A stretch of DNA of 64,000 nucleotides from a plasmid. Made by a program: the position numbers and the translations under genes. This document shows positions 1 to 25,072 of the stretch, in pieces. Where the stretch lies: sequence record NZ_CP020440.2; one strand, written 5' to 3'. Every line of letters begins with the position of its first letter. Within the stretch, counting starts at the first letter, position 1. A model generated the notes under the pieces. It saw only the letters and a list, made by a program, of their open reading frames with translations, did not search any database and had not been told where the DNA came from.

Positions 1-570
1 CAGGCCCGCCCGCACCTCGGCCAGCCGGGCGCGGTGGCGGATCAGCGGATGGCCCCAGCCCGCGACGACCGCGCCGAAGCTGGTCGGCGTCGCCGCCTGC
101 CCATAGGTGCGCGCGGCCATCGGCAGCGCCGCGTGCCGGCGCGCAAGCCGCCCCAGCGCGGCGATGAGATCCCCGATCCGTTCGTCCCAGATCTGGGTCA
201 CGCGGCGCAGGCGCAGCGCCAAGCCGGTTTCCATGATGTCCTGGCTGGTCGCGCCCCAATGCAGGTATTGCGCGTGATCGGGCGCGTTCATTGCCTTGCG
301 GAAGGCCGCGACCAGGGCCGGGACCGGCACGCCGTTCGTCGCCGTCTCGGCCCCCAGGGCGGCGGGGTCGATCTGCACCTCGCGGCTCGCGCGGTCGATG
401 AAGGCCGCCGCCGTTTCGGGGATGATGCCCAGGGCGCCCTGAACACGCGCAAGCGCGCCTTCGACCAGCAGCATGGCGCGGATCTCGGCGCTGTCGGTGA
501 AAAGCGCGGCCGTCGCATCGTCGGAAAACAGGCTGCGGTAGATGGCGCTGTCGGCGGCTGAGGCGGGCAT
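1..570 (-). CDS. pcaB: 3-carboxy-cis,cis-muconate cycloisomerase (PcaB), N-terminal portion; the gene continues past the window start
   Basis: Reverse-strand ATG at 568-570. Manual translation MPASAADSAIYRSLFSDDATAALF...AQYLHWGATSQDIMETGLALRLR matches the fumarate-lyase-family PcaB N-terminus. Not in the ORF track because it is cut by the window edge. It lies downstream of the pcaDCHG genes on the same strand. Confidence 0.7.
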   Translation of the reverse strand, partial: MPASAADSAIYRSLFSDDATAALFTDSAEIRAMLLVEGALARVQGALGIIPETAAAFIDRASREVQIDPAALGAETATNGVPVPALVAAFRKAMNAPDHAQYLHWGATSQDIMETGLALRLRRVTQIWDERIGDLIAALGRLARRHAALPMAARTYGQAATPTSFGAVVAGWGHPLIRHRARLAEVRAGL

Positions 571-652
571 GGGCAGTCCTTTGTGGAACGCGAAGGACCG
601 GGGGCTGTCTGCCCCCGGACCCCCGAGGATATTTCGGCAAGAAAGAAACGCC

Positions 653-1495
653 TCAGGCGGCGGGGCGCAAGCCCAGGATCTGGCGCGCCTGCTGCCAGGT
701 GGCGACGGGGCGGCCGTATTTCTCGCAAAGCTCGGCAGCGCGTTTCACCAGGGCGGCGTTCGAAGGCGCCAGCCGGTCGCGGTCGAGGCGCACGTTGTCC
801 TCGAGCCCGGTGCGGGCATGGCCGCCCGAGGAAATCGCCCAGTCGTTCAGCACGATCTGGTTCGGGCCGATGCCGGCGGCGCACCATGGGGCGTCCTCGC
901 CGAACAGGCGCTTGACGGTGTAGATATAGTAGTCGAACACCTCGCGGTCGGCGGGCATGGCGTTCTTCACGCCCATCACGAACTGGACATAGGGACGATC
1001 CGCGATCTGCCCCGCCGTCCACATCTGATGCGCCTTGAGGATATGGCTGAGGTCGAAGGCCTCGATTTCCGGCTTCACCCCGTATTTCACCATTTCCGAC
1101 GCCAGCCAGTCCACCAGGTCGGGCGGGTTTTCATAGACCCGCGTCGGGAAGTTGTTCGAACCGACCGAAAGCGAGGCCATGTCGGGCGCGAGCGGCAGCA
1201 TGCCACCCCGCGCCTGTCCCGCGCCCGAGCGTCCGCCCGTCGAGAGCTGCACGATGAGGCCGGGGCAGTGCTTTTCCAGCCCCTCCTTGAGCGCGGCGAA
1301 GCGGTCCGGGTCGCTGGTCGGGCGGCCCTCGTCATCGCGGACGTGGCAATGGGCAATGCTCGCACCCGCCTCGAAGGCTTCCTGCGTCGACTCGATCTGC
1401 TCGGCCACGGTGATCGGCACCGCCGGGTTGTTGTCCTTGGTCGGAAGCGAGCCGGTGATGGCGACGCAGATGATGCAGGGATTGCCCATGGTCAC
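653..1495 (-). CDS. beta-keto acid cleavage enzyme family protein (DUF849/BKACE; 3-keto-5-aminohexanoate cleavage enzyme-like)
   Basis: 280 aa ORF with TIM-barrel BKACE hallmarks (ICVAITGS...HCHVRD...QLSTGGR...). It sits between pcaG and pcaB on the same strand with 6 and 82 bp gaps. The start is probably GTG at 1493-1495, or ATG at 1487-1489. Confidence 0.75.
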   Translation of the reverse strand: MTMGNPCIICVAITGSLPTKDNNPAVPITVAEQIESTQEAFEAGASIAHCHVRDDEGRPTSDPDRFAALKEGLEKHCPGLIVQLSTGGRSGAGQARGGMLPLAPDMASLSVGSNNFPTRVYENPPDLVDWLASEMVKYGVKPEIEAFDLSHILKAHQMWTAGQIADRPYVQFVMGVKNAMPADREVFDYYIYTVKRLFGEDAPWCAAGIGPNQIVLNDWAISSGGHARTGLEDNVRLDRDRLAPSNAALVKRAAELCEKYGRPVATWQQARQILGLRPAA

Positions 1496-1501
1496 GCCTT
1501 C

Positions 1502-2113
1502 TCAGATGTCGAAGAACACGGTTTCGTTGTCGCCCTGCAGCTTGAAATCGAAGCTGTATGCGCCGGGGCCGGTCCTTTTGGCCAGCAGGGTCTGGACGCG
1601 GGCCTTGTGCTCGATCCGGGCCAGAACCGGGCATTCGGCATTGGCCGCTTCCTCGTCATCGAAATAGATGCGGGTCTGCAGTCCCACGTTGATGCCGCGC
1701 GCCACCAGCCAGATGTTGATGTGCGGCGCCATCAGCCGGCCGTCCGGAAAGGGCACGCGGCCCGGCTTGATCGTCTCCAGCCGATAGATGCCGGTGTCGA
1801 AATCCGCAGCGACCCGGGCCCAGCCGGTGACGTTCGGATCGGCCCGGCCGCGCGGGTCGTTGCCGGGATAGATGCCCTCGGCATCCGCCTGCCAGCTTTC
1901 GAACAGCGCATCGCGCAGGATCATGTCGGCGCCGTCGATGACGCGGCCGGTGATGGTGATGCGCTCGCCCTTGGCGCCCTCGCGGATGGGCGAGCCGCCC
2001 AGGTCCTCGGGATAGATGCCGGGGTTGCCGAGCGCGTTCGGGGTCAGCCCGATGTGGACATAGGGGCCCGCCGTCTGCGAGGGCGTTTCCTTGAGATAGT
2101 CCAGCTTCTGCAT
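1502..2113 (-). CDS. pcaG: protocatechuate 3,4-dioxygenase alpha subunit
   Basis: Start at [22 protein letters not shown] (residue 27 of track ORF 1502..2191). Classic PcaG sequence. The ATG overlaps the pcaH stop (ATGA). Confidence 0.85.
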   Translation of the reverse strand: MQKLDYLKETPSQTAGPYVHIGLTPNALGNPGIYPEDLGGSPIREGAKGERITITGRVIDGADMILRDALFESWQADAEGIYPGNDPRGRADPNVTGWARVAADFDTGIYRLETIKPGRVPFPDGRLMAPHINIWLVARGINVGLQTRIYFDDEEAANAECPVLARIEHKARVQTLLAKRTGPGAYSFDFKLQGDNETVFFDI

Positions 2114-2907
2114 CACAGCCCCTCCTTGCGGTTTTCGAAGAACGACTGGCGGCGGCCGCGCAGCACGATGTCGAACTTGTAGGCCAGACAATCCATCGGG
2201 ATCGCCCGGTTCATGTCAAGCGGCGCGACCAGCGCCTGGATGGCGCGGTCCTGCCCGATGGTGTTCACGATGGGGCATTTCGCGATCAGGGGGTCGCCCT
2301 CGAAATACATCTGGGTGATCAGGCGCTGACCGAAGCCCGAGCCGAAGACCGAGATGTGGATGTGCATCGGCCGCCAGTTGTTGACGTGGTTCGGCCAGGG
2401 ATAGGCGCCGGGCCGCACGGTCAGGAATTCATAGGATCCGTCGCGGCCCGTCAGGGTGCGCCCGCAGCCGCCGAAGTTCGGGTCCAGCGGCGCCAGGTAG
2501 CCGTCCTTCTTGTGGCGATAGCGCCCGCCGGCATTGGCCTGCCAGATCTCGACCAGCACGCCCGGCACGCCGCGGCCGGTTTCGTCCAGCACCCGGCCGT
2601 GCATGATGATGCGTTCGCCGATCGCCGGATCGCCGGTGAAGTTCATGATCAGGTTGTTGTCCAGGTCCCCGATCATCGAATGGCCGAAGGCCGGGCCGGT
2701 TTCCTCGGACAGCGTCGATCCCAGCGCGACCAGCGCGCGCTGCGGGGCGCGGGTCATCGAGGTCTTGTAGCCCGGCGTATAGGCCGGCGGATGCCAGTCG
2801 CGGTCGCGAAAGAACAGCGGTCCGGGGACGACCGAATGGTCGGTCTCGTCCCCGGCGGGGTTGTTGAGATGGGGCTTGACCTGAAAATCGGCCTGGCTGC
2901 GGTTCAT
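2113..2907 (-). CDS. pcaH: protocatechuate 3,4-dioxygenase beta subunit
   Basis: Real start at [14 protein letters not shown], residue 154 of the 417 aa track ORF. The upstream part of that ORF is an Arg/Pro-rich GC artefact. Intradiol dioxygenase motifs are present ([19 protein letters not shown]). Overlaps the pcaC stop by 4 nt. Confidence 0.85.
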
Positions 2908-3287
2908 GGATGGGTCTCCTCCATTTCGGCGAAGGTGTCCTTCGCGATCTTGATGGCATGGTTCGCGCGCGGCACGCCGGCGTAGATCGCGACATGCAAA
3001 AGCGCCTCGAGCACATCCTGCCGGCTGGCGCCGGTGCGGGCGGTGGCGCGGATGTGCATGGCCAGTTCGTGGTCGTTGCCAAGCCCCGCCAGCAGCGCGA
3101 TGGTCAGCATCGAACGTTCGCGCTTGCTGATCGTGTCGCGCGACCAGACCGAACCCCAGGCGCCTTCGGTGATCAGCGTCTGGAAGGGCGCGTCGAAATC
3201 GGTCTTGGCGGCCTCGGCGCGGTCCACATGGGCATCGCCCAGCACCGTGCGGCGCGTGGCCATGCCCTGGTCGTAGCGGTCGGTCAT
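2904..3287 (-). CDS. pcaC: 4-carboxymuconolactone decarboxylase
   Basis: 127 aa C-terminal segment of track ORF 2904..4118, starting at [51 protein letters not shown]-family signature. Only the last 127 aa of the track ORF are plausible protein. Confidence 0.8.
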
Positions 3288-4063
3288 CGGGCGTGTTCCT
3301 GGACAAAGGGGGCAAGGATCGCGGCATAGGCCGCGGGCTGTTCGACGCAGGGCAGGTGGCCCGCATCGGGAATGACGTGGAAGGCCGCGCCGGGGATCAG
3401 GTCGGCGGTGGCCTTGACCAGTTCGGCGGGCGAGGATCCGTCCTGATCGCCCGCGATGACCAGCACCGGCAGGCGCAGGCCGGCGGTCCCGGCGGCCAGG
3501 TCGGTCGCGGCCAGCGCCTCGCAGGCGGCGGCATAGCCGGCGACCGAGGTGCGCACGACCATGTTGCGCCAGGCGGCAAGCTCGGGCCGGGCGCGGAAGC
3601 CGGGGGCGAACCAGCGCTCCATGATGGTATCCGCGATCGAGCCGATGCCGGGTCCGCGCACCGCCGCGATGCGGTCGGCCCAGCTTTCGGCCGTGCCCAT
3701 CTTGACGGCGGTGTTCGACAGGACCACGGCGCGCAGCAGATCGGGGCGGCGCGCCGCCAGCGACTGCGCGATCATGCCGCCGATGGACAGGCCCACGAAG
3801 ACCACCGGCCCCACGCCCAGATGCTCGATCAGCGCGGCTGCGTCTTCGGCCAGGTCGTCGATGGAAAACGCGCCGCCCTCGTCGGACAGGCCGTGGCCGC
3901 GCTTGTCGAAGCGGATCGCGCGCAGGCCGGGCATCTTGGCCAGAAGCCCGTCCCACAGCCGCAGGTCGGTGCCCAGAGAATTGGCAAAGACGACGGCGGG
4001 CCCATCGGCCGGACCGTCGACGCGGTAATGCATCGCACCCCAGGGGCGGTTCAGAACTTGCAT
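3284..4063 (-). CDS. pcaD: 3-oxoadipate enol-lactonase (alpha/beta hydrolase)
   Basis: 259 aa from [37 protein letters not shown], an alpha/beta-hydrolase nucleophile elbow. Overlaps the pcaC start by 4 nt. The upstream 340 aa of the track ORF is an artefact that overlaps pcaQ on the other strand. Confidence 0.8.
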
Positions 4064-4129
4064 GGCATTCTCCCTTGTTCGATAATCTCTCATATCGAAA
4101 ACGGCTTGGATAATGCAAACTTCGCCCTG

Positions 4130-5044
4130 ATGGATAACCGTACCGCTATGCATCCGGGCGTCAAGCTGCGCCATATCCGCGCCTTTCTGGATATTGCCGC
4201 CGAAGGCGGGCTGACGGCCGTCGCCCGCGCGCAGGGCATCACCCAGCCGGCGCTGTCGCGTACCCTGGCGGAACTGGAAACGCTGCTGGGCCAGCCCATG
4301 TTCCTGCGCCAGGGCCGCCGCCTGGTCCTGACCGAGGCCGGGGCCCTGTTCCGCCGCCATGCCAGCGCCGCCGTCCAGGCGCTGGAGGCCGGGGCCGCCG
4401 CCCTTCGCCCCGGCAGCAGCGGCACGCTGCGCCTCGGCGTGCTGCCCACGGTCGCAACCCGCTTCCTGCCCCGCGTCGTCCTGCGCTTTCGCGAGATACG
4501 CCCCGAAATCGTGCTGGCGGCCGAAACCGGGCCGCATTTCCACCTGATGCGGCTTTTGCGCGAAGGCTCGGTCGATCTGGTCGTGGGCCGGCTGCCCGGC
4601 GCCTCCGAGATGGCGGGCCTGAGCTTCGATCACCTGTATGAGGAGGAGGTGATCCTGGCCGCGCGCGCCGATCACCCCATGCGCGCCCGCCCCGCCCCCG
4701 AGGCGCTGGCGGCGTCCCCAGTGATCCTGCCGCCCGCGACCGCGCTGATCCGGCCGGTGGTGGACAGCTACCTGGCCGCGAACGGTCTGGCCGGGCTGCG
4801 CCCCGCGCTCGAGACCGTCTCGCTGGCGCTGGGGCGCGGCATCTGCCTGGCCTCGGACGCGCTGTGGTTCATCTCGCGCGGGGTGGTGGTCCACGAACTC
4901 GACAAGGCCGAGATGATCGAACTGCCGACCGGGGCGCGGTTTCTGTCGGGCGCGGTGGGGATGACGCGACGTCAGGCCTCGGCCGCGCCGGGGCTGGCGG
5001 ATTTCGCCGAAATCGCGGCCGAGGTCGCCCGCCAGATGCCCTGA
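4130..5044 (+). CDS. pcaQ: LysR-family transcriptional activator of the pca operon
   Basis: 304 aa from MDNRTAMHPGVKLRHIRAFLDIAAEGGLTAVARAQGITQPALSRTLAELE (LysR HTH). Transcribed divergently from pcaD with a 66 bp intergenic region, the classical pcaQ-pcaDCHGB layout of Rhizobiales and Rhodobacterales. Confidence 0.75.
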   Translation: MDNRTAMHPGVKLRHIRAFLDIAAEGGLTAVARAQGITQPALSRTLAELETLLGQPMFLRQGRRLVLTEAGALFRRHASAAVQALEAGAAALRPGSSGTLRLGVLPTVATRFLPRVVLRFREIRPEIVLAAETGPHFHLMRLLREGSVDLVVGRLPGASEMAGLSFDHLYEEEVILAARADHPMRARPAPEALAASPVILPPATALIRPVVDSYLAANGLAGLRPALETVSLALGRGICLASDALWFISRGVVVHELDKAEMIELPTGARFLSGAVGMTRRQASAAPGLADFAEIAAEVARQMP

Positions 5045-5189
5045 CCCGGCGGCCGGGCGACCGAAAGTTTCAAAAACCCCTTGCATGAAGTCCATTTACG
5101 CAAGGCAAATGCATTGATACTGGGCCCCGCAAGGCCGGTGCCGAAAAAAGCCGGTCCCGGATTTCCGAGCGAACAGGAGGGATTCGATC

Positions 5190-6467
5190 TTGGTGACGCA
5201 AACACAGCCGCGCGGCATGGCGGCAACGACCTGGGTGGCCAGCCTGTGCTGGATCGCCGTGGTGCTGGACGGGTTCGATCTGGTGGTGCTGGGCGCCCTG
5301 ATCCCGACGCTGACGGGGGGCGAATCGCCCTTCATGACCAAACCCGAGGCGACCTTCGTGTCGACCATCAGCCTGGTCGGGATGACGCTGGGGGCGCTGA
5401 CCATCGGCGCGCTGACCGACCGGGTCGGACGGCGCAAGGCGATGATCTGGGCGGTCGCGGCCTTTTCGGTCGCCACACTGGCCTGCGCATTCGCGCAGAA
5501 CTGGGGCCAGCTCGGCCTGTTCCGCTTCCTTGCGGGCTTCGGCCTGGGCGGCTGCCTGCCCACCGCCATCGCCATGGTGACCGAGTTCTCCTCGGGCAAG
5601 GCGGGCAAGGCCTCGACCCGGGTGATGACGGGCTATCACGTCGGTGCGGTCGCGACGGCGCTGCTGGGACTGGTGCTGCTGCCCCTGCTGGGCTGGCGGT
5701 CCATGTTCTGGGCGGGCGCCCTGCCCGGCTTCGTGCTGGTGCCGCTGATGATGCGCCACCTGCCCGAATCGCCTTCGTTCCTGCTGGCCAAGGGGCGCCG
5801 GGACGAGGCGCTGGCCGTCGCCCGCGCCAACAACCTGGTGCTCGAGCCCGAGGCCCCCACCCCCACGGCCGAGGCGGCCATTTCGGGCAGCGCCCTGTTT
5901 CGCGCGCCCTTCCTGCGCAATTCGCTGGGGATCTGGGTCACGTCCTTCATGGGGCTTCTGCTGGTCTATGCGCTGAACACCTGGCTGCCCACGCTGATGA
6001 TCGAGGCGGGCTACGGGTTGCAGCGCGGGCTGTGGTTCCTGCTCTTGATGAACGTCGGCGCCATCGTGGGCCTTCTGGTCGCCGGCCAGGTCGGCGACGC
6101 CATCGGGCTGCGCACCGCGGTCATCATCTGGTTCCTGGCCAGCGCCATCCTGCTGGCGGCGCTGTCGGTCAAGGTCCAGGTCGGGCTGCTTTACCCGCTG
6201 GTCTTCGTCACCGGCTGCTTCGTCTTTTCGGCGCAGGTGCTGGTCTATGCCTATACGGCGGCGAACCATCCCCCGGCCGTGCGGGCCACCGCGCTTGGCA
6301 TGGCGGCGGGCATCGGCCGGCTCGGCGCGATCTCGGGCCCGCTTCTGGGCGGCACGCTGGTGTCGATGGGCATCGGCCACCCCTGGGGCTTTTACGTCTT
6401 CGCCTTGGTGGGCCTGCTGGCCGCCATCGCCATCACCTCGACCCGGGTGATGCGGCAAAAGGTCTGA
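5190..6467 (+). CDS. pcaK: MFS transporter, aromatic acid:H+ symporter family (4-hydroxybenzoate/protocatechuate transporter-like)
   Basis: 425 aa with 12 predicted TM segments and MFS motifs (LTDRVGRRKAM, GxxxGG). It lies between pcaQ and pobR-pobA. The gene symbol is inferred from context only. Confidence 0.6.
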   Translation: MVTQTQPRGMAATTWVASLCWIAVVLDGFDLVVLGALIPTLTGGESPFMTKPEATFVSTISLVGMTLGALTIGALTDRVGRRKAMIWAVAAFSVATLACAFAQNWGQLGLFRFLAGFGLGGCLPTAIAMVTEFSSGKAGKASTRVMTGYHVGAVATALLGLVLLPLLGWRSMFWAGALPGFVLVPLMMRHLPESPSFLLAKGRRDEALAVARANNLVLEPEAPTPTAEAAISGSALFRAPFLRNSLGIWVTSFMGLLLVYALNTWLPTLMIEAGYGLQRGLWFLLLMNVGAIVGLLVAGQVGDAIGLRTAVIIWFLASAILLAALSVKVQVGLLYPLVFVTGCFVFSAQVLVYAYTAANHPPAVRATALGMAAGIGRLGAISGPLLGGTLVSMGIGHPWGFYVFALVGLLAAIAITSTRVMRQKV

Positions 6468-6522
6468 TCCCCCTCGCCCGGCGCCCCGATGCGGGCGCCG
6501 GGTCCTGCGGCCAAGGCGAGCC

Positions 6523-7410
6523 ATGTCCAGCGACCAGCCGATCCCGCATTACTATCTTTACGGCGACAGCGGCGCCGACGTCGAACGCGACTTCCTGCAT
6601 GTCGAGCCGATCCTGGACCGCAGCGGCCCGCACGGCTGGCGCATCAGGCCCCATGCCCATCCCGACCATGCCCAGGTCTTTCTGATCCACCAGGGCGGCG
6701 GCACCGTCCGGTTCGAGGACCGCACCCTGGCGATCCCCCTGCCCGCCGTCATGGTCGTGCCCGCGGGCTGCGTCCACCAGTTCGAATTCCAGCCCGGCAC
6801 CGACGGCTATGTGGTGACGGCGGCGCTTGGCTGGCTGCAGGCGGCGACGGCGGGTGACCCGCAGCTGGCGCAGGTGCTGGCCGATCCGGCGGTGCTGGCG
6901 CTCGAAGGCTCGGGCATCCACGAACCCACGGTGATCGACAGCTTCGACTGGCTCCTGCGCGAATTCGTCTGGTCGGCACCCGGGCGGCGCACGGCGATCA
7001 TGGCGCTTTACCTGCGCATCCTGGTCATCGTGCTGCGCCTGCGCGTCGCGCATCAGGCCCTGGCGGGGCCCGCGCCCCTTGACCGCGACCAGGACCTGCT
7101 GGTGCGCTACCGCGCCCTGATCGAGCGGCATTTCCGAAAGCAGCGCGCGCCGGCCTTCTACGCCGATGCGCTGGCCGTCACCGTCGCCCGGCTGAACGCT
7201 GCCTGCAAGGCCCGCGCCGGGCGCACCGCCAGCGCGGTGCTGCACGAACGCATCCTGCTCGAGGCCAAGCGCATCCTGCTTTACACCGACCACACGGTCG
7301 CCCGCGTGGCCCACATGACGGGTTTCGAGGACCCGGCCTATTTCAGCCGGTTTTTTGCGCAGCGCACGGGCCGGTCCCCCGCCAGCTGGCGCAAGCTTCA
7401 GGCCGGCTGA
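6523..7410 (+). CDS. pobR: AraC-family transcriptional regulator, putative 4-hydroxybenzoate hydroxylase regulator
   Basis: 295 aa. Cupin-like N-terminal domain and a C-terminal AraC HTH (ILLEAKRILLYTDHTVARVAHMTGFEDPAYFSRFF). Sits immediately upstream of pobA. The gene symbol is inferred from context only. Confidence 0.6.
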   Translation: MSSDQPIPHYYLYGDSGADVERDFLHVEPILDRSGPHGWRIRPHAHPDHAQVFLIHQGGGTVRFEDRTLAIPLPAVMVVPAGCVHQFEFQPGTDGYVVTAALGWLQAATAGDPQLAQVLADPAVLALEGSGIHEPTVIDSFDWLLREFVWSAPGRRTAIMALYLRILVIVLRLRVAHQALAGPAPLDRDQDLLVRYRALIERHFRKQRAPAFYADALAVTVARLNAACKARAGRTASAVLHERILLEAKRILLYTDHTVARVAHMTGFEDPAYFSRFFAQRTGRSPASWRKLQAG

Positions 7411-7523
7411 CGATCCGTCCAAGTTTTTCGACGCCCCGTCCATTCCCCGGAAAGCCCCGGTTGCGCCATTTTGCCGCATCAGCGCGGGCCCCCCTCGCCC
7501 GCGACCGGAAGGGAGGAAAGACC

Positions 7524-8690
7524 ATGCGTCACCAGGTCTGCATCATCGGCGGCGGCCCCTCGGGCCTGCTGCTTTCGCTGCTTTTGCGCCGCGCCGGCGT
7601 CGATTCCGTCGTGCTGGAACGCCGCTCGCGCGACTATGTGCTGTCGCGCATCCGGGCGGGCGTGCTGGAACAGGGCCTGTGCGACATCCTGCGCAAGGCC
7701 GGCGTCGGCGCGCGCATGGATGCCGAAGGTTTCGTCCATGACGGCACCATCATCACCGCCCATGGCACCACCGTGCACATCGACTTCAAGGCGCTAATGA
7801 ACAAGTCCGTCATGATCTACGGCCAGACCGAGGTCACGCAGGACCTTTACACGGAACTCGACCGCATCGGCGCGCCGATCTTTCACGAGGCCGAGGATGT
7901 CGCGATCCACGGCGCCGACAGCGACGCGCCGCATGTGACCTTCACCCAGGGCGGCAAGCCCCACCGCGTCGATTGCGACCATATCGCGGGCTGCGACGGG
8001 TTCCACGGCGTCAGCCGCCGCACCATCCCCGAAAGCGTGCGGCGCGAATTCGAAAGCGTCTATCCCTTCGGCTGGCTGGGCATCCTGTCCGAAACCCCGC
8101 CGGCCGCCGAGGAACTGATCTATTCCGGCCACGAACGCGGCTTTGCGCTGTGTTCCATGCGCAACGCCAACCTCTCGCGCCACTATCTGCAGGTGCCGCT
8201 GACCGACACGCCCGAGGCCTGGTCCGACGACGCCTTCTGGGACGAACTCCGCCGCCGCCTGCCGCCGCATTTCGCCGAAACCCTGGTGACTGGCCCCAGC
8301 ATCGAAAAAAGCATCGCGCCGCTGCGCAGCTTCATTTCCGAACCGATGAGCTGGGGGCGCATCCACCTGGCGGGCGACGCCGCCCATATCGTGCCGCCGA
8401 CCGGCGCCAAGGGGCTGAACCTGGCCGCGTCCGATGTCTGGTATCTGTCACAGGCGCTGATCGCGCTTTACGCGGGCGATCCGGCACCGCTGCGGGACTA
8501 TTCCGCGACGGCCCTGGCGCGGGTCTGGAAGGCGTCGCGCTTTTCCTGGTCGATGACGCGGATGCTGCACCAGTTCCCGGCCGAGGGCGCGTTCCTGGCC
8601 CGGATGCAGGCGGCCGAGGTCGACTATCTGGCGCAGTCCAGGGCCGCCCAGACCGCGCTTGCGGAAAACTACGTCGGCCTGCCCTACTGA
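7524..8690 (+). CDS. pobA: 4-hydroxybenzoate 3-monooxygenase
   Basis: Start at MRHQVCIIGGGPSGLLLSLLL (FAD GxGxxG motif) with a GGGAGG Shine-Dalgarno sequence about 8 nt upstream. The track ORF begins earlier at a TTG. Full-length PHBH-like sequence (DGFHGVSRR, HLAGDAAH). Confidence 0.85.
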   Translation: MRHQVCIIGGGPSGLLLSLLLRRAGVDSVVLERRSRDYVLSRIRAGVLEQGLCDILRKAGVGARMDAEGFVHDGTIITAHGTTVHIDFKALMNKSVMIYGQTEVTQDLYTELDRIGAPIFHEAEDVAIHGADSDAPHVTFTQGGKPHRVDCDHIAGCDGFHGVSRRTIPESVRREFESVYPFGWLGILSETPPAAEELIYSGHERGFALCSMRNANLSRHYLQVPLTDTPEAWSDDAFWDELRRRLPPHFAETLVTGPSIEKSIAPLRSFISEPMSWGRIHLAGDAAHIVPPTGAKGLNLAASDVWYLSQALIALYAGDPAPLRDYSATALARVWKASRFSWSMTRMLHQFPAEGAFLARMQAAEVDYLAQSRAAQTALAENYVGLPY

Positions 8691-8705
8691 CGGCGGCCGG
8701 AACGG

Positions 8706-8743
8706 AAAACGCCCGGGGGACGACCTCCCCCGGGCGTTTCTTC
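8706..8743. terminator. GC-rich hairpin followed by a T-rich run; a candidate bidirectional terminator between convergent pobA and the helicase gene
   Basis: AACGCCCGGGGGA-cgacc-TCCCCCGGGCGTT followed by tcttc, about 16 nt after the pobA stop and overlapping the helicase stop. Confidence 0.4.
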
Positions 8744-10652
8744 ATGCCTTGCGGCCCTTCGGGGCATAGCCGCCCCGGTCGGCCTTGCCCTTGGCCCCCG
8801 GCTTGGCCCAGCCGGGCTTGCCGGCGAACTTGCCCTCGGGCCGGCCGGCGGGCTTCTGGTCGAACTTGCCGCGCGGCTTGTCGCGCGGGGGCGCGGCGTC
8901 ACCTGCGGCGCGCTTGGCGGCCTTGTCTGCCGTGCTCCAGCGGGCCTTTTTCGGCGCGGCCTCGGCTTCGGCTGGGCGCTCGGCCTCGGGCGTGGGGGCG
9001 GGCGCGCGGCGGGGATAGCCTTTCTTCTCGGGCGTCTCGCGGCGCGGGGGCGCGGCGCTGCGCTCGAAATTCGGCATGCCCTCCAGCCGGACCATCATCA
9101 GCCCGTCCTCAAGCTCGGTCGCCTCGCCGAAGGCCGGGGCCGCCTCGCGCGCGATCTGCACGAAGCTTTCGTGGTCGCGCACCTTGATGGCGCCGATCAC
9201 GTCCTTGGTCACGCGGCCCGCCTCGCAGATCTTGGGCAACAGCCAGCGCGCCTCGGCCCGGCCGGAATAGCCGACCGACAGCGAGAACCAGACCGAATCG
9301 CCGAAATCGCGCGGCTCGCGCGGCGCCAGCGCATCGGGGCGTTCGCGCACCACGGTCAGTTCCTCGGGGGCCGGGCGGCCTTCGCGCCACAGCCGGATGA
9401 AGGCGGCGGCGACCTGCTCGGGGCCAAAGCGCGCGATCAGGTTCGCGGCCTGCTCGGCCTCGTCTCCGGCGGGCTCGGCCAGGGCGGGATGCTCCAGCAT
9501 CCGCTGATCGTCGCGGGCGCGCACCTCGTCGGCGCTGGGGGCACCGCCCCAGGTCGCCTCGACCCGGGCGGTCTTCAGCAGGCGCTGCGCCTTCTTGTAT
9601 TCCGGCGCGACCACGATCAGCGCCGAAACGCCCTTGGACCCCGCCCGGCCGGTCCGGCCCGAACGGTGCAGCAGGGTTTCGGCATTGGTCGGCAGGTCGG
9701 CGTGGATCACCAGCTCCAGCCCCGGCAGGTCGATGCCGCGCGCGGCCACGTCGGTCGCGATGCAGACGCGGGCGCGGCCATCGCGCAGCGCCTGCAGCGC
9801 ATGGGTGCGTTCCTGCTGGCTCAGCTCGCCCGACAGCGCCACCGCCTTGAAGCCGCGGTTGCCCATCCGCGCCAGCAGGTGGTTCACATTGGCGCGGGTC
9901 TTGCAGAAGATGATCGCCGTCTGGCTTTCATGCAGCCGCAGCAGGTTGAAGATCGCCGGTTCCCGGTCGCGAACCGAAACGCTGATCGCCCGATATTCGA
10001 TGTCGCCGTGCTGGCGCGCCTCGCCCTGGGCCACGATGCGCAGGGCGTCCTTCTGGAAATCCTTGGCCAGCTTCTCGATCGCCGGCGGCACGGTGGCCGA
10101 GAACATCAGCGTGCGGCGGCTGTCGGGGGCCGATTGCAGGATGAACTCCAGGTCCTCGCGGAAGCCCAGGTCCAGCATCTCGTCGGCCTCGTCCAGGACG
10201 GCGGCGCGCAGGCCCGACAGGTCCAGCCCGCCGCGCTCGATATGGTCGCGCAGCCGGCCGGGGGTGCCGACGACGATATGGGGCCCGCGTTCCAGCGCCC
10301 GGCGTTCGGTGCGATAGTCCATGCCGCCCACGCAGGTCGCGATGCGCGCGCCTGCCTCGGCGTAAAGCCATTCCAGTTCGCGCGCGACCTGCAGCGCCAG
10401 TTCGCGCGTCGGCGCGATGGCCAGGCCCAGCGGCACGTCGGCCGGCAGCAGCACCGCGCCCTCGCCCAGGATGTCGGGCGCCACGGCCAGGCCGAAGGCC
10501 ACCGTCTTGCCCGATCCGGTCTGCGCCGAGACCAGCATGTCGCGGCCCGCCGCGTCGGCGGCCAGCACCGCCTGCTGCACCGAGGTCAGGCTGGCATAGC
10601 CCTTGGCCGCCAGCGCCGCGGCCAAAGGCGCGGCAATAGTCAGTTCGTTCAT
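8742..10652 (-). CDS. DEAD-box ATP-dependent RNA helicase with a basic low-complexity C-terminal tail
   Basis: Start at MNELTIAAPLAAALAAKGYASLTSVQ. Motifs AQTGSGKT, PTRELA, DEAD, SAT and HRSGRTGRAG are present, plus a DbpA/RRM-like C-terminal region and then about 100 aa rich in K, R, P and A. Confidence 0.8.
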   Translation of the reverse strand: MNELTIAAPLAAALAAKGYASLTSVQQAVLAADAAGRDMLVSAQTGSGKTVAFGLAVAPDILGEGAVLLPADVPLGLAIAPTRELALQVARELEWLYAEAGARIATCVGGMDYRTERRALERGPHIVVGTPGRLRDHIERGGLDLSGLRAAVLDEADEMLDLGFREDLEFILQSAPDSRRTLMFSATVPPAIEKLAKDFQKDALRIVAQGEARQHGDIEYRAISVSVRDREPAIFNLLRLHESQTAIIFCKTRANVNHLLARMGNRGFKAVALSGELSQQERTHALQALRDGRARVCIATDVAARGIDLPGLELVIHADLPTNAETLLHRSGRTGRAGSKGVSALIVVAPEYKKAQRLLKTARVEATWGGAPSADEVRARDDQRMLEHPALAEPAGDEAEQAANLIARFGPEQVAAAFIRLWREGRPAPEELTVVRERPDALAPREPRDFGDSVWFSLSVGYSGRAEARWLLPKICEAGRVTKDVIGAIKVRDHESFVQIAREAAPAFGEATELEDGLMMVRLEGMPNFERSAAPPRRETPEKKGYPRRAPAPTPEAERPAEAEAAPKKARWSTADKAAKRAAGDAAPPRDKPRGKFDQKPAGRPEGKFAGKPGWAKPGAKGKADRGGYAPKGRKA

Positions 10653-14247: not shown

Positions 14248-14925
14248 TCAGGGCGCGATGACCCGCACGCGCTGCACCGTGCCGTCACTGCGCCGCACGG
14301 CCGTCGCCAACCGCTCGGCCAGATGGGTCTGGACGTAGGACGCGTGAAACCGCGACGGCGCCAGCAGGGTCAGGCAGCCGTCCTCGACCGCCGCCTCGGA
14401 CAGGGCGGCGAACCAGCTTTCGAACAGGGTGCGGTCTTCCTCGGCCAGCCGGGCGCAGGCCTGCGCCCACAGCCCCTCGCCCCGGGGCAGGACGGGCCGG
14501 GCCGGCCGCAGCGGCACGACATTGTCCGCGCCGGCCCCCTGCCCCGCCAGCCGGGCCACGAAATCGGGCCCGATGTTCTCCCACTCGGGCCGCGTGTCCA
14601 GCATGATCCGCTCCAGCTCCAGCCCCAGGACCGACACCCGCCCCCGGGCCCCCGGCTGGCGCACGGCGATCCAGCCCATCGCCCGCAGCCGCGCCATCTC
14701 GCGCTTGACGGTGCGCTCGTCCACGCTCCACAGCCGCGCGATCTCGCGCTGGCCCACGGTCAACTCGTCCCGCTGCCAGTTGTAGCGGCTGGTGATCAGC
14801 GCCATCAGCCGCAGGACCAGCCGCTGGCGATGCTTGTCGCCGGCCAGGGCATGGGCCATCATGGCTGACAGGATATCGTATTTCTTGGCCGCGGCCTCAC
14901 GCCCGACGGCTCGTATCACCTGCAT
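14248..14925 (-). CDS. small DnaA-like replication initiator (winged-helix N-terminus plus DnaA domain I-like C-terminus)
   Basis: 225 aa. The N-terminal part has an HTH-like segment (ELTVGQREIARLWSVDERTVKREMARLRAMGWI). The C-terminal 70 aa (GLWAQACARLAEEDRTLFESWFAALSEAAVEDGCLTLLAPSRFHASYVQTHLAERL) follows the DnaA domain I pattern (LWxxCLxRLxxEL...W..L......L.L.APNRF..DWV...Y). It is divergent from the parAB operon across a 480 bp intergenic region. Confidence 0.55.
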   Translation of the reverse strand: MQVIRAVGREAAAKKYDILSAMMAHALAGDKHRQRLVLRLMALITSRYNWQRDELTVGQREIARLWSVDERTVKREMARLRAMGWIAVRQPGARGRVSVLGLELERIMLDTRPEWENIGPDFVARLAGQGAGADNVVPLRPARPVLPRGEGLWAQACARLAEEDRTLFESWFAALSEAAVEDGCLTLLAPSRFHASYVQTHLAERLATAVRRSDGTVQRVRVIAP

Positions 14926-15405: not shown

Positions 15406-16710
15406 ATGTACACGCACGAAGACCTCGCCCGGCTGCAGGCCCAGTCCCTCAAGATGCAGGGCTGGATCCGGCGCCAGACCTTCAGCCCGGCCAATGAAAA
15501 GACCCTGCGCCGCTTCTCCTCCTGGGAGGTGGCCGAGCTGATCTTCCGGATGAACCAGTCGACCTTCCGCGGCAAGCTCGCCGCCGACCCGAACCTTCCC
15601 CTCGGGGAAGTCGAGGAGGACGGCCGCCAGCGCTGGTTCTCGCTCGACGAGGTGAACGAGCTGCGCCGCCGCATCAAGGTCAACCGCAAAAGCCTGATGC
15701 CGCCCCGCCCCGAGGGCAAGCGCGCCTTCCGCGCCGCCATCGCGAACTTCAAGGGCGGTGCCGGCAAGTCGACCGTGGCGCTGCACTTCGCCCATGCCGC
15801 GGCGCTCGATGGCTACCGCGTCCTCCTGGTGGACTTCGACCCCCAGGCGACGCTGTCGCACAGCATGGGCCTGACCGACGTGGGCGAGGATCATACCGTC
15901 TGGGGCATCATGGCCCGCGACCTCGAACGCGAAACCGACCGCATGAACGCCGTCGCCCGCGGCGCCGAATCGGGCACCGCCCTGCCCCAGCGCAAGCTGC
16001 CCGCCTCGATCCGCGACATGGGTCTCGGCACGCTGCGGCCTGCGGACTTCATCAAGCCCACCGCCTGGCCCACCATCGACATCATCCCCAGCTGCGCCAA
16101 CGCCGCCTTCGTCGAGTTCGCCAGCGCCCAGTACCGCCACCTGAACCCGGAATGGACCTTCTTCGGCGCGGTCTCGCGCTTCCTCGACAGCCTCGCGGAC
16201 GATGCCTACGACCTGATCCTCTTCGACTGCCCGCCGGCCATCGGCTACCAGTCGATGAACGCGGTCTTTGCGGCCGACATGCTCTATATCCCCTCGGGTC
16301 CCGGCTACTGGGAATACGACTCGACCACCAGCTTCATCGGCCAGCTCTCCGAGGCGCTCGAGGATCTCTCGCACGGGTTCGAGAACTTCCCCACGGGGAA
16401 GATCCGCCTGCCCAAGGCCTTCGCCGATGTCCGCTTCCTGATGACGCGGTTCGAGCCCTCGAACGAATTGCACCAGGCCATGCTCGGCGCCTTCCGCCAG
16501 GTCTTCGGCGATCGCATGGCCGAGCACCCGATCGAGCTGACCCGCGCCGTCGAGCAATCCGGCCGCTTCCTCAGCTCCATCTACGAGATCGACTACCGCG
16601 AGATGACCCGCGGCACGTGGCGACGCGCCCGCGCGACCTTCGATCAGGCCTATGAGGAGTTCAAGTCCCACGCCATCGCAGCCTGGGCCAAGCTGGAGGA
16701 TCAGGCATGA
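15406..16710 (+). CDS. RepA/ParA-family partition ATPase with a long N-terminal extension
   Basis: 434 aa. Deviant Walker A (KGGAGKST), LLVDFDPQ, and an N-terminal extension of about 120 aa typical of RepA from repABC and related alphaproteobacterial replicons. The stop overlaps the parB start. Confidence 0.8.
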   Translation: MYTHEDLARLQAQSLKMQGWIRRQTFSPANEKTLRRFSSWEVAELIFRMNQSTFRGKLAADPNLPLGEVEEDGRQRWFSLDEVNELRRRIKVNRKSLMPPRPEGKRAFRAAIANFKGGAGKSTVALHFAHAAALDGYRVLLVDFDPQATLSHSMGLTDVGEDHTVWGIMARDLERETDRMNAVARGAESGTALPQRKLPASIRDMGLGTLRPADFIKPTAWPTIDIIPSCANAAFVEFASAQYRHLNPEWTFFGAVSRFLDSLADDAYDLILFDCPPAIGYQSMNAVFAADMLYIPSGPGYWEYDSTTSFIGQLSEALEDLSHGFENFPTGKIRLPKAFADVRFLMTRFEPSNELHQAMLGAFRQVFGDRMAEHPIELTRAVEQSGRFLSSIYEIDYREMTRGTWRRARATFDQAYEEFKSHAIAAWAKLEDQA

Positions 16711-17816
16711 GCCGCAAGCGCCGCATGTTCGACATCGAGATGCCCGACGAGCCCGCCCCCGACGTCCCCGCGGGGAAGGTCGAGCCCGCCCCCGAGGCCG
16801 AGCCGCCGCGTCGCGGTCCCATGGCCACCGCGATCAGCGAAACCGCCGAATCCAGTCGCGAGCGCGCCCGGCTTGAAGCCGATATCCGGGCTGAGAACGA
16901 CGCGCTGGCCGCCGAGCATGTCCGGCTGAAGCGGGCAGGGCTCATCACCGACCTGATCCCGGTCGACGTCATCGACACCCAGAAGCTGATCCGCGACCGC
17001 GCGCCCGGTCCCGATTTCGAACTGGCCGAGCTGGTCGCCTCGATCCGCGAGATCGGCCTTTCGAACCCGATCCGCGTCGAGCCCGCCGGGAACGGCCGCT
17101 ACGAACTGATCCAGGGCTGGCGCCGCTTGTCGGCCTATCGCCAGCTGCTCGAGGAGACCGGCGATGCCGAGACCTGGGGCCGGATCCCGGCCGGCATCGC
17201 GGCGCGCGGCGACGAACTGGAACGCCTCTACCGCCGCATGGTGGACGAGAACCTGGTGCGCAAGGACATCTCCTTCGCCGAGATGGCCCAGCTCGCCCTG
17301 CATTACGCCATGGACCCGCTGACGCCCGAGAACGACCCCGAGAAGGCCGTGGCGATCCTGTTCAAGTCCGCCGGCTATCAGAAGCGCAGCTACATCCGCA
17401 GCTTCATCCGCGTGGTCGAGGCGCTGGACGGCGTGCTCCTCTACATGGCCGAGATCCCGCGCGCCCTGGGCCTGGCGCTGGCGGCGCGCCTGGACGAGGT
17501 GCCGGGCCTGGTCGGCGCCATCCGGGCCGAGCTCAAGGACTGGGACACCCGCAGCATCAAGGACGAACTTGATCTGCTCCGCCGCTTCGCAGGGCAGGGC
17601 GAGGACGCGGTCACCGCGCCCGCTCCCAAGGCCAAGTCCCCGACCATCCCCGCGGGGAAGGCGCGCACCACCTTCCAGATCGCGCGCCCCCAGGGCAGTG
17701 CCAAATGCACCGCCGCCAACGGCCGGCTCGAGATCCGGCTGCCGCGCGACTTCTCGGCCATCGACCGCCGCAAGCTTGAGGCCGCCGTCCGCTCCATGCT
17801 GGAAAGCCTCGAGTGA
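16707..17816 (+). CDS. ParB/RepB-family partition protein
   Basis: 369 aa with a ParB-box region (IPVDVIDTQKLIRDRAPG...IREIGLSNPIRVEPAGNGRYELIQGWRRLSAYRQL). It is followed by non-replication genes, so no repC follows it. Confidence 0.8.
   Translation: MSRKRRMFDIEMPDEPAPDVPAGKVEPAPEAEPPRRGPMATAISETAESSRERARLEADIRAENDALAAEHVRLKRAGLITDLIPVDVIDTQKLIRDRAPGPDFELAELVASIREIGLSNPIRVEPAGNGRYELIQGWRRLSAYRQLLEETGDAETWGRIPAGIAARGDELERLYRRMVDENLVRKDISFAEMAQLALHYAMDPLTPENDPEKAVAILFKSAGYQKRSYIRSFIRVVEALDGVLLYMAEIPRALGLALAARLDEVPGLVGAIRAELKDWDTRSIKDELDLLRRFAGQGEDAVTAPAPKAKSPTIPAGKARTTFQIARPQGSAKCTAANGRLEIRLPRDFSAIDRRKLEAAVRSMLESLE
16765..16778. repeat. copy 1 of the GC-rich palindrome TCCCCGCGGGGAAG, inside the parB coding sequence (codons P-A-G-K, residues 21-24); a candidate parS-like site
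   Basis: Exact 14-mer identical to the copies at about 17647 and about 17820. The core CCCCGCGGGG is a perfect palindrome. Confidence 0.4.
17647..17660. repeat. copy 2 of TCCCCGCGGGGAAG, inside the parB coding sequence (I-P-A-G-K, residues 314-318)
   Basis: Exact repeat of the 14-mer. Placed by codon arithmetic from the parB start. Confidence 0.4.
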
Positions 17817-18930: not shown

Positions 18931-20021
18931 TCGCGGCCGACCGGATCTGGCAGGAGGGCGCGCTGGTCCCGGGCCTGGCCGTGGAGACCGACGGCCGCCG
19001 CGTCCTGGCCCTGCGTCCGCTGGGCGCCGACCGGCCCGACCATCATGTGCCGCTGCTGGTGCCGGGCTGCACCGACCTGCAGGTGAACGGCGGCGGCGGT
19101 GTCCTGTTCAACGCCGACCCGACGCCCGAAGGGATCGCCGCCATTGCCGCCGCCCATCATCGGCTGGGGGTGGCGCAGATCCTGCCCACGGTCATCACCG
19201 ACGCGCCCGAGGTGCTGGAGGCCGCCGCCGATGCGGTGATCGCCTGCCGGGACGCGCCGGGCATCGCCGGCATCCATATCGAGGGGCCCCATATCGCCCC
19301 CGAGCGGCGCGGCACGCATGAGGCGCGCTTCATCCGCCCGCTGGATGCCCGCACGCTGGCCGTGCTGCGCCGGCTGCGCGCCGCCGGCGTGCCGGTGCTG
19401 CTGACGCTTGCGCCCGAGACCGCCGATCCGACCCTGCTGGCCGAGGCGAAGGCCCTGGGCGTGGTGCTCTCGGCCGGGCACAGCATGGCCGACGCCGCCC
19501 AGGCGCGCGCCGCGCTGGCGCAAGGCGTCACCATGGCCACCCATCTGTTCAACGCCATGCCGCAGATGACCGCCCGCGCGCCGGGGCTGATCGCCGCCGC
19601 GCTGCTGTCGGGCCTGTGGTGCGGGCTGATCGCGGACGGCATCCATGTCTCGGCCGAGATGCTGGCGATCGCGCTGCGGGTCGCGGGGGATCGCTGCTTT
19701 CTGGTCTCGGACGCGATGCCGACGGTCGGGGGGCCGGACCGCTTCAGCCTGTACGGGCGCGAGATCGCGGTCCGCGACGGCAGGCTGGTCAATGCCGAGG
19801 GCGCGCTGGCCGGCGCCCATCTGGACCTGCCGCAGGCCATGCGGCGCCTGGTCGCGCTGACCGGGGCCAGCCCTGGGACCGCCATCGCCATGGCGACCGA
19901 CCGGCCGCGCCGCGCGATGGGGCTGGCGCCGCTTGCTGTCGCGCCGGGGACCGCGCTGCGCGACCTGCTGGCGCTGGACCACGACTTGCACATGGTGCCG
20001 CTGCCGGGACGGGACGCATGA
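18924..20021 (+). CDS. nagA: N-acetylglucosamine-6-phosphate deacetylase
   Basis: 365 aa with amidohydrolase NagA motifs ([25 protein letters not shown]). GTG start overlapping the nagK end. The stop overlaps the next gene's ATG (ATGA). Confidence 0.8.
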
Positions 20022-21022
20022 TCCCGGTCTTTGTCGTCACCGGCTTTCTGAGGGCGGGCAAGACCACGCTGGTCAACCGCCTTCTGGCCGCCCATCCCGA
20101 TACGGCCCTCATCATCAATGAATTCGGCGCGGTCGCGGTCGATCACCATCTGGTCCGGCAGGGCCGCGAACGGGTGCTGACCAGCACCGGCTGTATCTGC
20201 TGCACGGCGGGCAGCGACCTGCGCAGCACGCTGGACGAGTTGCTGCGCGGCCGCCGCGACGGCAGCCTGCCCGGCTATGCCCGGGTGCTGGTGGAAACCA
20301 CGGGTCTGGCCGATCCGGCCCCCATCGTGAACAGCCTGATCCCGGGCGGCCTGCCGGCTGTGGCGCTGCGCGACCATGCGGTGGCGCGGGCGTTCCGGCT
20401 GTCCTCGGTCATCACCGTGGCGGATGCGCAGGGGATTGCGGCGCTGGTCGCGCGCCACGCGCAGGCGCTGCGCCAGGTGGCCTTTGCCGACCATCTGGTG
20501 CTGAGCCACACCGACCTTGGCCCGCCGGGCGATCTGTCGGCGCTCACGGCGATCAACCCCGGCCTGCGGGTCCATGACGCGGGCGATCCCGCCTTCGACC
20601 CGGGCCTGCTGCTGGCCCCCGGCAGCTATGACGCGGCGGGGAAGGGCGCGGCGCTGGCGGGCTGGCTGGCCGAGGCGAAGGGCGCCTCCGGTCCGCGGCA
20701 TGGCGGCATCGCCGCCCATACGCTGGCGGCGGATGCGCTCCTGGATCGGGCGCGGCTGATGGATTTCCTGGCAGGCCTTGTCGCGGGCGGGCAGGTGCTG
20801 CGCGCCAAGGGGCTGGTCGCGGTCGCCGATGATCCGGGCCGCCCGCTGGTCGTCCATGCCGTGGGCCACCGGCTTTATCCCCCCGTCATGGCCGAGGCCT
20901 GGCCCGAGGGCCCGGCCGGCTCGCGGCTGGTCGTCATCGGCGAGGGGCTGGACGGCGCGCTGCTGCAGCGGCGCTTTGCCGCGCTGGCGGGGCCGGCGCG
21001 CCTGCCGGGGCTTGGCGGCTGA
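20018..21022 (+). CDS. CobW/COG0523-family GTPase (putative zinc metallochaperone)
   Basis: Start at [18 protein letters not shown] (Walker A) with the CxCC metal motif (GCICCTAG), about 334 aa. The upstream 134 aa of the track ORF is out-of-frame overlap with nagA. Confidence 0.7.
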   Translation: MIPVFVVTGFLRAGKTTLVNRLLAAHPDTALIINEFGAVAVDHHLVRQGRERVLTSTGCICCTAGSDLRSTLDELLRGRRDGSLPGYARVLVETTGLADPAPIVNSLIPGGLPAVALRDHAVARAFRLSSVITVADAQGIAALVARHAQALRQVAFADHLVLSHTDLGPPGDLSALTAINPGLRVHDAGDPAFDPGLLLAPGSYDAAGKGAALAGWLAEAKGASGPRHGGIAAHTLAADALLDRARLMDFLAGLVAGGQVLRAKGLVAVADDPGRPLVVHAVGHRLYPPVMAEAWPEGPAGSRLVVIGEGLDGALLQRRFAALAGPARLPGLGG

Positions 21023-21098
21023 GCGTCGATTCCGGGGGTTCCGGCCGGGCTGCGCTTTGGCTAGGCTGGCCGCAACCAAGAACACACAAGGGGCAGTC

Positions 21099-24817: not shown

Positions 24818-25072
24818 TCAGAAGCTGACGTCGCGCGGGGCCACCCAGGCGCGCCCGGAATCGGGGCTCAGGTCGGGGCCCGGAAAGCTGAGGAGGTGGG
24901 CGGCGAAGGAGCCGCGGTTTTCCTGCGTCGCGGCCAGCATCCGGGCGTAGTCCGCGGCGGCCAGCACCACGACGGCGGGCTTGCCGCGCCGCGTCACCTG
25001 CTGCGGCTGGCCGGCAAGCGCCGCATCGACCACGGCCGAAAAGCGGTTCTTGGCATCCTGAAGCGTCCACAT
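24818..25072 (-). CDS. Phd/YefM-family antitoxin
   Basis: 84 aa. The N-terminus (MWTLQDAKNRFSAVVDAALAGQPQQVTRRGKPAVVVLAAADY) matches the Phd/YefM fold. Immediately upstream of the PIN toxin with no gap. Confidence 0.65.
   Translation of the reverse strand: MWTLQDAKNRFSAVVDAALAGQPQQVTRRGKPAVVVLAAADYARMLAATQENRGSFAAHLLSFPGPDLSPDSGRAWVAPRDVSF

Follow-up and report, generated by a model that had tools for sequence, protein, structure and literature searches.

The pca clusters of Methylobacterium are among the closest known systems to the locus analysed here. These clusters lack pcaI, pcaJ and pcaF. In nearly every one, pcaG and pcaB are separated by a DUF849 gene, whose product was suggested, citing Bastard et al. 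2014, to act on beta-ketoadipate (Lee et al. 2022, PMC8963497). A later study named the gene kce, stated that beta-ketoadipate and acetyl-CoA are converted to succinyl-CoA and acetoacetate, and reported that M. extorquens gained growth on protocatechuate from the M. nodulans genes pcaHG-kce-pcaB-pcaL (mSphere 2025, PMC12379598). For the fate of acetoacetate in Methylobacterium, a CoA exchange with succinyl-CoA through the 3-oxoacid CoA transferase of the PHB cycle has been proposed, and the 3-oxoacid CoA transferase gene was up-regulated in evolved strains (2026 preprint, bioRxiv 10.64898/2026.03.02.709203). We found no report of a kce deletion phenotype in the accessible literature.

Buchan and colleagues (2004) reportedly described the pca gene organization of roseobacters and, following pcaG, a conserved ORF with co-expression in S. 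pomeroyi. The family of beta-keto acid cleavage enzymes (BKACE, DUF849) also includes the Kce of lysine fermentation, which acts on 3-keto-5-aminohexanoate, and proteins covered by the curated equivalog model NF053568, "3-oxoadipate:acetyl-CoA acetyltransferase". The short name of this model suggests a Cupriavidus necator H16 exemplar. According to a secondary source, the structures 3FA5 and 3CHV were among the modelling templates for the family in Bastard et al. 2014, and groups for beta-ketoadipate and negatively charged substrates were reported. The label of the beta-ketoadipate group varies between secondary sources: it is G4 in one (PMC8963497) and a G3 subgroup in another.

An initial annotation of a plasmid-borne pca operon had tentatively assigned a BKACE gene between pcaG and pcaB to the conversion of 3-oxoadipate and acetyl-CoA into succinyl-CoA and acetoacetate. 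Here we compare this locus with the systems above. The assignment is essentially right but not new: a curated model, NF053568, exists for the enzyme family, and the same layout and reaction have been printed for Methylobacterium.

Results

Organization of the pca locus

We analysed 64,000 nucleotides of plasmid DNA (record NZ_CP020440.2), hereafter the window. Positions 1-9000 align over their full length with three Paracoccus yeei plasmids of 225-296 kb at 98.4-98.7% identity, and genes for ParA-like, ParB-like and DnaA-N-domain proteins are located at 14.2-17.8 kb of the window (Pfam). GC3-based gene calling and the RefSeq plasmid annotation were discrepant in a few regions (for example, 19157-21106), with no bearing on the BKACE gene. 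The features relevant to the pathway are collected in Table 1.

Table 1. Pathway-related features of the window.
Feature	Coordinates	Strand	Basis and remarks
pcaB, first 190 codons	1-570	-	best NCBIfam matches are pcaB models; truncated by the window edge
GC-rich stem-loop in the BKACE-pcaB spacer	592-624	-	RNA fold; without a T-run after it
BKACE-family protein, putative 3-oxoadipate:acetyl-CoA acetyltransferase, 278 aa	653-1489	-	PF05853, NF053568
pcaG, protocatechuate 3,4-dioxygenase alpha subunit	1502-2113	-	TIGR02423, 233 bits (cut-off 126)
pcaH, protocatechuate 3,4-dioxygenase beta subunit	2113-2907	-	TIGR02422, 351 bits (cut-off 296)
pcaC, 4-carboxymuconolactone decarboxylase	2904-3287	-	TIGR02425, 198.5 bits (cut-off 155.7)
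pcaD, 3-oxoadipate enol-lactonase, at the head of the operon	3284-4063	-	TIGR02427, 300 bits (cut-off 256)
pcaQ-like LysR regulator, divergent from pcaD	4130-5044	+	TIGR02424, 280 bits, slightly below the cut-off of 304; Pfam HTH_1 and LysR_substrate
Aromatic acid/H+ symporter (PcaK-like MFS)	5217-6467	+	TIGR00895 family match; start as in RefSeq, P. yeei plasmid
AraC-family regulator, pobR-like	6523-7410	+	Pfam AraC_binding and HTH_18
pobA, 4-hydroxybenzoate 3-monooxygenase	7524-8690	+	TIGR02360, 632 bits (cut-off 539); RefSeq start
Acetyl-CoA C-acetyltransferase-type thiolase	40632-41807	+	51% identity to E. coli AtoB; PRK06954, 664 bits

The BKACE gene lies, as had been claimed, between pcaG and pcaB on the same strand, in the order pcaDCHG-BKACE-pcaB. 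Its product matches the Pfam profile PF05853 (BKACE/DUF849) from position 1 to 274 of 274 (309.6 bits, E 2.4e-92), and this end-to-end match marks it as a real gene rather than an ORF that arose by chance from a high GC content. The neighbouring genes pobA, pcaHG, pcaC and pcaD had also been named correctly, all of them scoring above their NCBIfam equivalog cut-offs, and pcaB is present in its window-truncated form. Beyond the window edge, identical contigs and an annotated P. yeei plasmid place pcaB at the end of the operon with 437 aa; the full-length copy of the plasmid reaches 329.5 bits, slightly below the cut-off of 355.75. Past pcaB follow a convergent DUF6635 gene and then ssu (sulfonate-utilisation) genes, and pcaIJF were not found there in either the identical contigs or the P. 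yeei plasmid.

The translation start of the BKACE gene is more likely ATG 1489 (278 aa) than the alternative GTG 1495 (280 aa). The 280-aa product has no exact-sequence match in the databases, and the 278-aa product matches exactly on 10 contigs. As the shorter product is 100% identical to RefSeq plasmid-encoded P. yeei proteins and ATG 1489 has a ribosome-binding site (GAAGG) upstream, we set the start to this codon. The gap between pcaG and the BKACE gene is consequently 12 bp instead of the 6 bp given in the initial annotation; the 82 bp given for the gap to pcaB stand.

This 82-bp spacer (571-652, minus strand) folds with a minimum free energy of -37.5 kcal/mol, which none of 200 shuffled sequences equals (z -3.1). 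A scan for the terminator consensus did not call its stem-loop, nor does P. aminovorans conserve the stem-loop sequence. Given a stable hairpin between the BKACE gene and pcaB, we treat the co-transcription of pcaB as an assumption. We also considered the spacer as a scar left by the loss of scoAB; it does not align with the scoB-pcaB spacer of P. aminovorans, and this origin is thus unsupported.

Family and active site of the BKACE protein

The BKACE protein passes NF053568 with 493.3 bits (E 1.6e-148, cut-off 350), aligning with profile positions 2-273 of 274. Its orthologues in the pca operons of P. aminovorans (491 bits) and Phaeobacter (502 bits) pass as well. Compared with the NF053568 system, the P. 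yeei protein, known from its sequence, has equal length and the same Zn-binding and catalytic residues, and we found no difference. The Kce equivalog NF052387, in contrast, scores 246.8 bits, below its cut-off of 382.

Among solved structures, the closest are 3FA5 from P. denitrificans (562 bits), 3CHV from Silicibacter pomeroyi (475 bits) and 3NO5 (406 bits), which we take to be a Cupriavidus/Ralstonia protein; the Kce structure 2Y7D follows with 170 bits. The matches to 3FA5 and 3CHV span the full length. Both proteins were deposited as being of unknown function, and 3NO5 likewise as DUF849/uncharacterised. From the match to 3FA5, and with 3CHV deposited as "DUF849 with a TIM barrel fold", the P. 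yeei protein is predicted to adopt a TIM-barrel fold.

An alignment of the active-site residues, a comparison that the initial annotation had suggested, was made against Kce. In the numbering of Bellinzoni et al. 2011, we take the Zn ligands of Kce to be His46, His48 and Glu230, its catalytic and substrate-anchoring set to be Glu143, Arg226, Asp231 and Ser82, and Glu14 to be the residue that binds the amino group of the substrate. In the alignment with 2Y7D, the Zn ligands are retained as His47, His49 and Glu230, and so are the catalytic and substrate-anchoring residues Glu143, Arg226, Asp231 and Ser83. None of these residues varies among 239 Paracoccus and roseobacter homologues of 83-100% identity. 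Kce and the BKACE protein have in common the family, the Zn site (His-x-His plus Glu) and the catalytic Glu143/Arg226/Asp231. They differ at the position of Kce Glu14, which aligns with Leu15 of the BKACE protein (234 of the homologues have Leu and 5 have Val), and at Arg87 and Arg117, which are invariant among the homologues and correspond to Ala and Asp, respectively, in Kce. With leucine instead of Glu14 and with the two arginines, negative charge is exchanged for positive, which would suit a substrate with an anionic distal carboxylate.

The conversion of 3-oxoadipate and acetyl-CoA that had been proposed for the gene product is precisely the function assigned to NF053568, and it agrees with the proposal for Methylobacterium. 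Judged by this model and its active site, the BKACE protein almost certainly cleaves 3-oxoadipate with acetyl-CoA. Assays of this protein, of a Paracoccus orthologue or of one from other Rhodobacterales were not found in the accessible literature.

Synteny in related replicons

The BKACE gene directly follows pcaG in all seven loci examined. Genes for CoA-transferase A and B come after it in three of them, and a thiolase gene in none. The P. aminovorans plasmid IV has the order pcaDCHG-BKACE-CoA transferase A-B-pcaB and a Phaeobacter inhibens plasmid the order pcaCHG-BKACE-CoA transferase A-B-pcaD-pcaB; in P. indicus, the transferase genes are inserted after the BKACE gene as in P. aminovorans. 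No thiolase gene was found in these three transferase-bearing clusters. The pca locus of P. pantotrophus has the same layout as that of P. yeei, and the BKACE gene closes the pca cluster in Albibacillus and in a further genome, which carries the label Microbulbifer sp. S227A. The adjacency to pcaG in every locus, together with the invariant catalytic residues, argues for a selected role in the protocatechuate pathway.

By description, the P. yeei locus resembles that of Methylobacterium kce in the position between pcaG and pcaB, the lack of pcaIJF in the cluster, the proposed reaction and the 3-oxoacid CoA transferase acting downstream. Whereas Methylobacterium belongs to the Hyphomicrobiales and carries a fused pcaL, P. 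yeei belongs to the Rhodobacterales, carries the cluster on a plasmid and has separate pcaC and pcaD genes.

CoA transferases and thiolases

Tblastn searches with E. coli AtoD/AtoA and Paracoccus CoA-transferase A/B as queries gave no match to a family-I CoA transferase better than E 0.2 in the 64 kb, and Pfam scans of the window genes did not find a CoA_trans pair. Both results bear out the earlier statement that pcaIJ is absent from the window. The companion statement on pcaF, for which the equivalog search covered the window, holds in the strict sense: there is no dedicated pcaF, as nothing reaches the cut-off of 597 bits, but the window is not free of thiolases. Its only thiolase scores 315 bits on the pcaF model TIGR02430; the best model is that of an acetyl-CoA C-acetyltransferase (Table 1), and the gene is surrounded by acyl-CoA ligase, SDR and acyl-CoA dehydrogenase genes. 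This enzyme could possibly supply the thiolysis of acetoacetyl-CoA.

The initial annotation had also proposed a genome-wide search for pcaIJ and pcaF, or catIJF. For the transferase, such a search yielded a scoAB-type pair on the chromosome, without adjacent pca genes. A genome scan seeded with the P. aminovorans A subunit located the pair on the chromosome of P. yeei CCUG 46822, where subunits A and B are 95% and 94% identical, respectively, to the in-operon pair of P. aminovorans. The genes are flanked by ggt on one side and a thioesterase/tolQ cluster on the other, and no pca or thiolase gene occurs within 8 kb. Similarly, 78 of the 80 closest transferase loci stand alone, with neither pca genes nor a thiolase nearby, a pattern that points to housekeeping scoAB. 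As for the plasmids of the species, no P. yeei record was among the best 60 and 45 matches of the tblastn and blastn searches of PLSDB for scoAB/pcaIJ; 7 of the 22 Paracoccus records lay outside these matches. The chromosomal pair belongs to the NCBIfam families pcaI_scoA_fam and pcaJ_scoB_fam, which do not separate PcaIJ from ScoAB, and since the models lump the two, this transferase could also act directly on 3-oxoadipate.

Discussion

Proposed route from 3-oxoadipate

We propose that the BKACE protein is a 3-oxoadipate:acetyl-CoA acetyltransferase, that its gene is co-transcribed with pcaDCHG and pcaB on the P. yeei plasmid, and that a ScoAB-type transferase encoded on the chromosome and a generic thiolase close the route; we regard this model as very probable. 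In it, PobA together with PcaHG, PcaB, PcaC and PcaD would convert 4-hydroxybenzoate and protocatechuate to 3-oxoadipate. By a Zn-dependent, Claisen-type exchange, the BKACE protein would then turn 3-oxoadipate and acetyl-CoA into succinyl-CoA and acetoacetate. The chromosomal transferase would form acetoacetyl-CoA and succinate from acetoacetate and succinyl-CoA, and thiolysis of acetoacetyl-CoA with CoA would give two acetyl-CoA. The stoichiometry of these three reactions is textbook chemistry. Their sum, 3-oxoadipate and CoA to succinate and acetyl-CoA, would be the same as that of PcaIJ and PcaF.

The proposed route and the canonical one thus share substrate and net stoichiometry, and both require a PcaIJ-family transferase and a thiolase. 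Unlike the canonical route, that of BKACE would cleave the C-C bond of the free acid with a Zn TIM-barrel enzyme before CoA transfer, so that acetoacetate and acetoacetyl-CoA take the place of 3-oxoadipyl-CoA as intermediates. It also differs in its genes, there being no dedicated pcaIJF in the P. yeei operon or the window. The reaction had been described as a single step that bypasses PcaIJ and PcaF. This is right in that the dedicated genes are dispensed with, but not in that the enzyme types are still needed for acetoacetate, a scoAB-type transferase being present on the chromosome. A one-step bypass is overstated, because acetyl-CoA is consumed and acetoacetate has to be re-activated and then cleaved.

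Alternative explanations

Both RefSeq and UniRef label the gene product "3-keto-5-aminohexanoate cleavage protein", and its fold and catalytic residues are those that it has in common with 2Y7D, as would be expected if it were a Kce acting on 3-keto-5-aminohexanoate. We nevertheless hold this function to be exceedingly improbable: the protein falls short of the Kce equivalog, Glu14 is replaced by leucine, two arginines occur in motifs that differ from those of Kce, and the neighbours are all pca or pob genes, with no lysine-fermentation genes found in the window. Members of the family without catalytic residues have been reported in the literature, and the gene might conceivably be a relic, inactive or no longer a BKACE, that has merely persisted in the operon. 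An intact ORF that covers the whole Pfam profile, with every Zn and catalytic residue in place and invariant among the homologues, makes this highly improbable.

More weight attaches to the canonical reaction sequence, in which the chromosomal transferase of the PcaIJ/ScoAB family would activate 3-oxoadipate to 3-oxoadipyl-CoA and a generic or PaaJ-type thiolase would cleave this intermediate, leaving the BKACE protein redundant, a minor parallel activity or active on another beta-keto acid. P. yeei does possess a transferase pair whose family model covers PcaIJ, and a thiolase is encoded in the window. Moreover, Roseovarius nubinhibens no longer grew on 4-hydroxybenzoate after inactivation of its stand-alone 3-oxoacid CoA transferase, pcaF was neither induced nor required, several thiolases being able to replace it, and the data were read as the canonical route (AEM 2025, PMC12442348). 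However, an essential transferase and a dispensable, uninduced pcaF are equally predicted by the BKACE route. BKACE is mentioned neither in the paper nor in its supplement (PMC12442348), and R. nubinhibens was not among the best 120 matches of a homology search seeded with the Phaeobacter BKACE protein. Against the canonical sequence also stand the transferase genes themselves: within operons they always directly follow the BKACE gene and are never accompanied by a thiolase, and elsewhere they are almost all found alone. Chiefly because pcaG and BKACE are strictly adjacent, the active site does not vary and the protein passes a curated equivalog for the 3-oxoadipate reaction, we consider the canonical alternative unlikely.

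Implications

With 3-oxoadipate cleavage by BKACE as the preferred reading, the current nomenclature is misleading in part: a protein that passes NF053568 persists in RefSeq as "3-keto-5-aminohexanoate cleavage protein" or "BKACE family enzyme". The data of at least one recent experimental study of roseobacters have been read without taking BKACE into account (PMC12442348). We suggest, tentatively and with slightly more doubt than confidence, that pob-pca-BKACE is a portable "short" beta-ketoadipate pathway and that BKACE provides the only route used physiologically by Paracoccus and roseobacters. The essentiality of "pcaIJ" and the thiolase "pathway crosstalk" in Roseovarius (PMC12442348) would then reflect the recycling of acetoacetate behind an overlooked BKACE. 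One dedicated terminal enzyme would suffice for such a module, because it would use the ScoAB of the PHB cycle and the acetoacetyl-CoA thiolase of its host.

The cost of the BKACE route would be one dedicated enzyme plus housekeeping enzymes of the PHB cycle (ketone-body enzymes). Half of the aromatic carbon would pass through acetoacetate and acetoacetyl-CoA and would tie aromatic catabolism to PHB metabolism, as has been argued before for Methylobacterium (bioRxiv 10.64898/2026.03.02.709203). If the module is indeed portable in this sense, P. yeei would display a dependency across replicons, its BKACE being plasmid-encoded and its scoAB chromosomal.

Spacer hairpin and sub-cut-off scores in the pca operon

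Folding of the 82-nt spacer between the BKACE gene and pcaB (571-652) yielded a minimum free energy of -37.5 kcal/mol (z -3.1), and the predicted RNA structure includes a very stable, GC-rich hairpin at 592-624(-) with no T-run on its 3' side. In P. aminovorans another, different GC-rich hairpin precedes pcaB; the sequences do not align. The spacer hairpin might set the ratio of pcaB to upstream transcript. The PcaB encoded by the operon (1-570 in the window; 11257-12570 in L009, an annotated P. yeei plasmid with full-length pcaB) scores slightly below both curated pcaB cut-offs (329.5 versus 355.75 and 332.5 versus 371), and its RefSeq name is 'adenylosuccinate lyase family protein'. A score slightly under the respective cut-off (280 versus 304) was also obtained for the pcaQ-like regulator.

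The replicon and its other genes

The window comes from that part of a P. yeei plasmid (225-296 kb; PLSDB rep_cluster_746) which serves replication and partition. Since this replicon also carries panB, panC and ilvD, it looks chromid-like. The PIN-domain gene and the small ORF upstream of it (24401-25072) probably form a toxin-antitoxin pair of the VapBC type, which is frequent on large plasmids. Subunit II of the plasmid-borne haem-copper oxidase displays the COX aromatic-rich motif, and this sequence feature suggests a quinol oxidase. The genes clustered at 38201-42943 look like a candidate module for short-chain acyl-CoA oxidation. About 400 N-terminal codons of the long ORF 36968-39850 are devoid of any domain, and its start is probably over-extended. 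For the ORFs of 553 and 271 residues, Pfam returned no family above threshold; a weak beta-propeller hint is the sole domain signal in the longer one.

Coordinates of features in the window and in related pca loci
Feature	Location	Strand	Remarks
DnaA-N-terminal-domain gene	window 14248-14925	(-)	followed by ParA-like gene
ParA-like gene	window 15406-16710		between DnaA-N-terminal-domain and ParB-like genes
ParB-like gene	window 16707-17816		after ParA-like gene
PIN-domain gene	window 24401-24817	(-)	
Small ORF	window 24818-25072		upstream of PIN-domain gene
Haem-copper oxidase subunits II, I, III	window 26682-30554		plasmid-borne
ORF, 271 aa	window 30787-31602		coding-like GC3
Small RTX protein	window 36097-36585		nearly all calcium-binding nonapeptide repeats; six matched stretches
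Acyl-CoA ligase (AMP-binding), SDR, acetyl-CoA C-acetyltransferase-type thiolase, acyl-CoA dehydrogenase	window 38201-42943		clustered
ORF, 553 aa	window 49384-51045		coding-like GC3
scoAB-type CoA-transferase pair, P. aminovorans	L008 9652-11860		directly 3' of BKACE gene, inside pca operon
scoAB-type CoA-transferase pair, Phaeobacter inhibens	L011 6165-8328		directly 3' of BKACE gene, inside pca operon
scoAB-type CoA-transferase pair, P. indicus	L055 7168-9340		directly 3' of BKACE gene, inside pca operon

CoA transferases in related operons and the proposed BKACE route

No thiolase gene accompanies the scoAB-type pair inserted into the pca operons of P. aminovorans, Phaeobacter inhibens and P. 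indicus. The P. aminovorans pair shares 94-95% identity with the housekeeping pair on the P. yeei chromosome. In an experimental study of 4-hydroxybenzoate catabolism in Roseovarius nubinhibens (PMC12442348, 2025), pcaF was dispensable and a 3-oxoacid CoA transferase essential, which its authors, who nowhere mention the BKACE family, attribute to 'pathway crosstalk'. These data fit equally well with the BKACE route, in which 3-oxoadipate and acetyl-CoA would give succinyl-CoA and acetoacetate.
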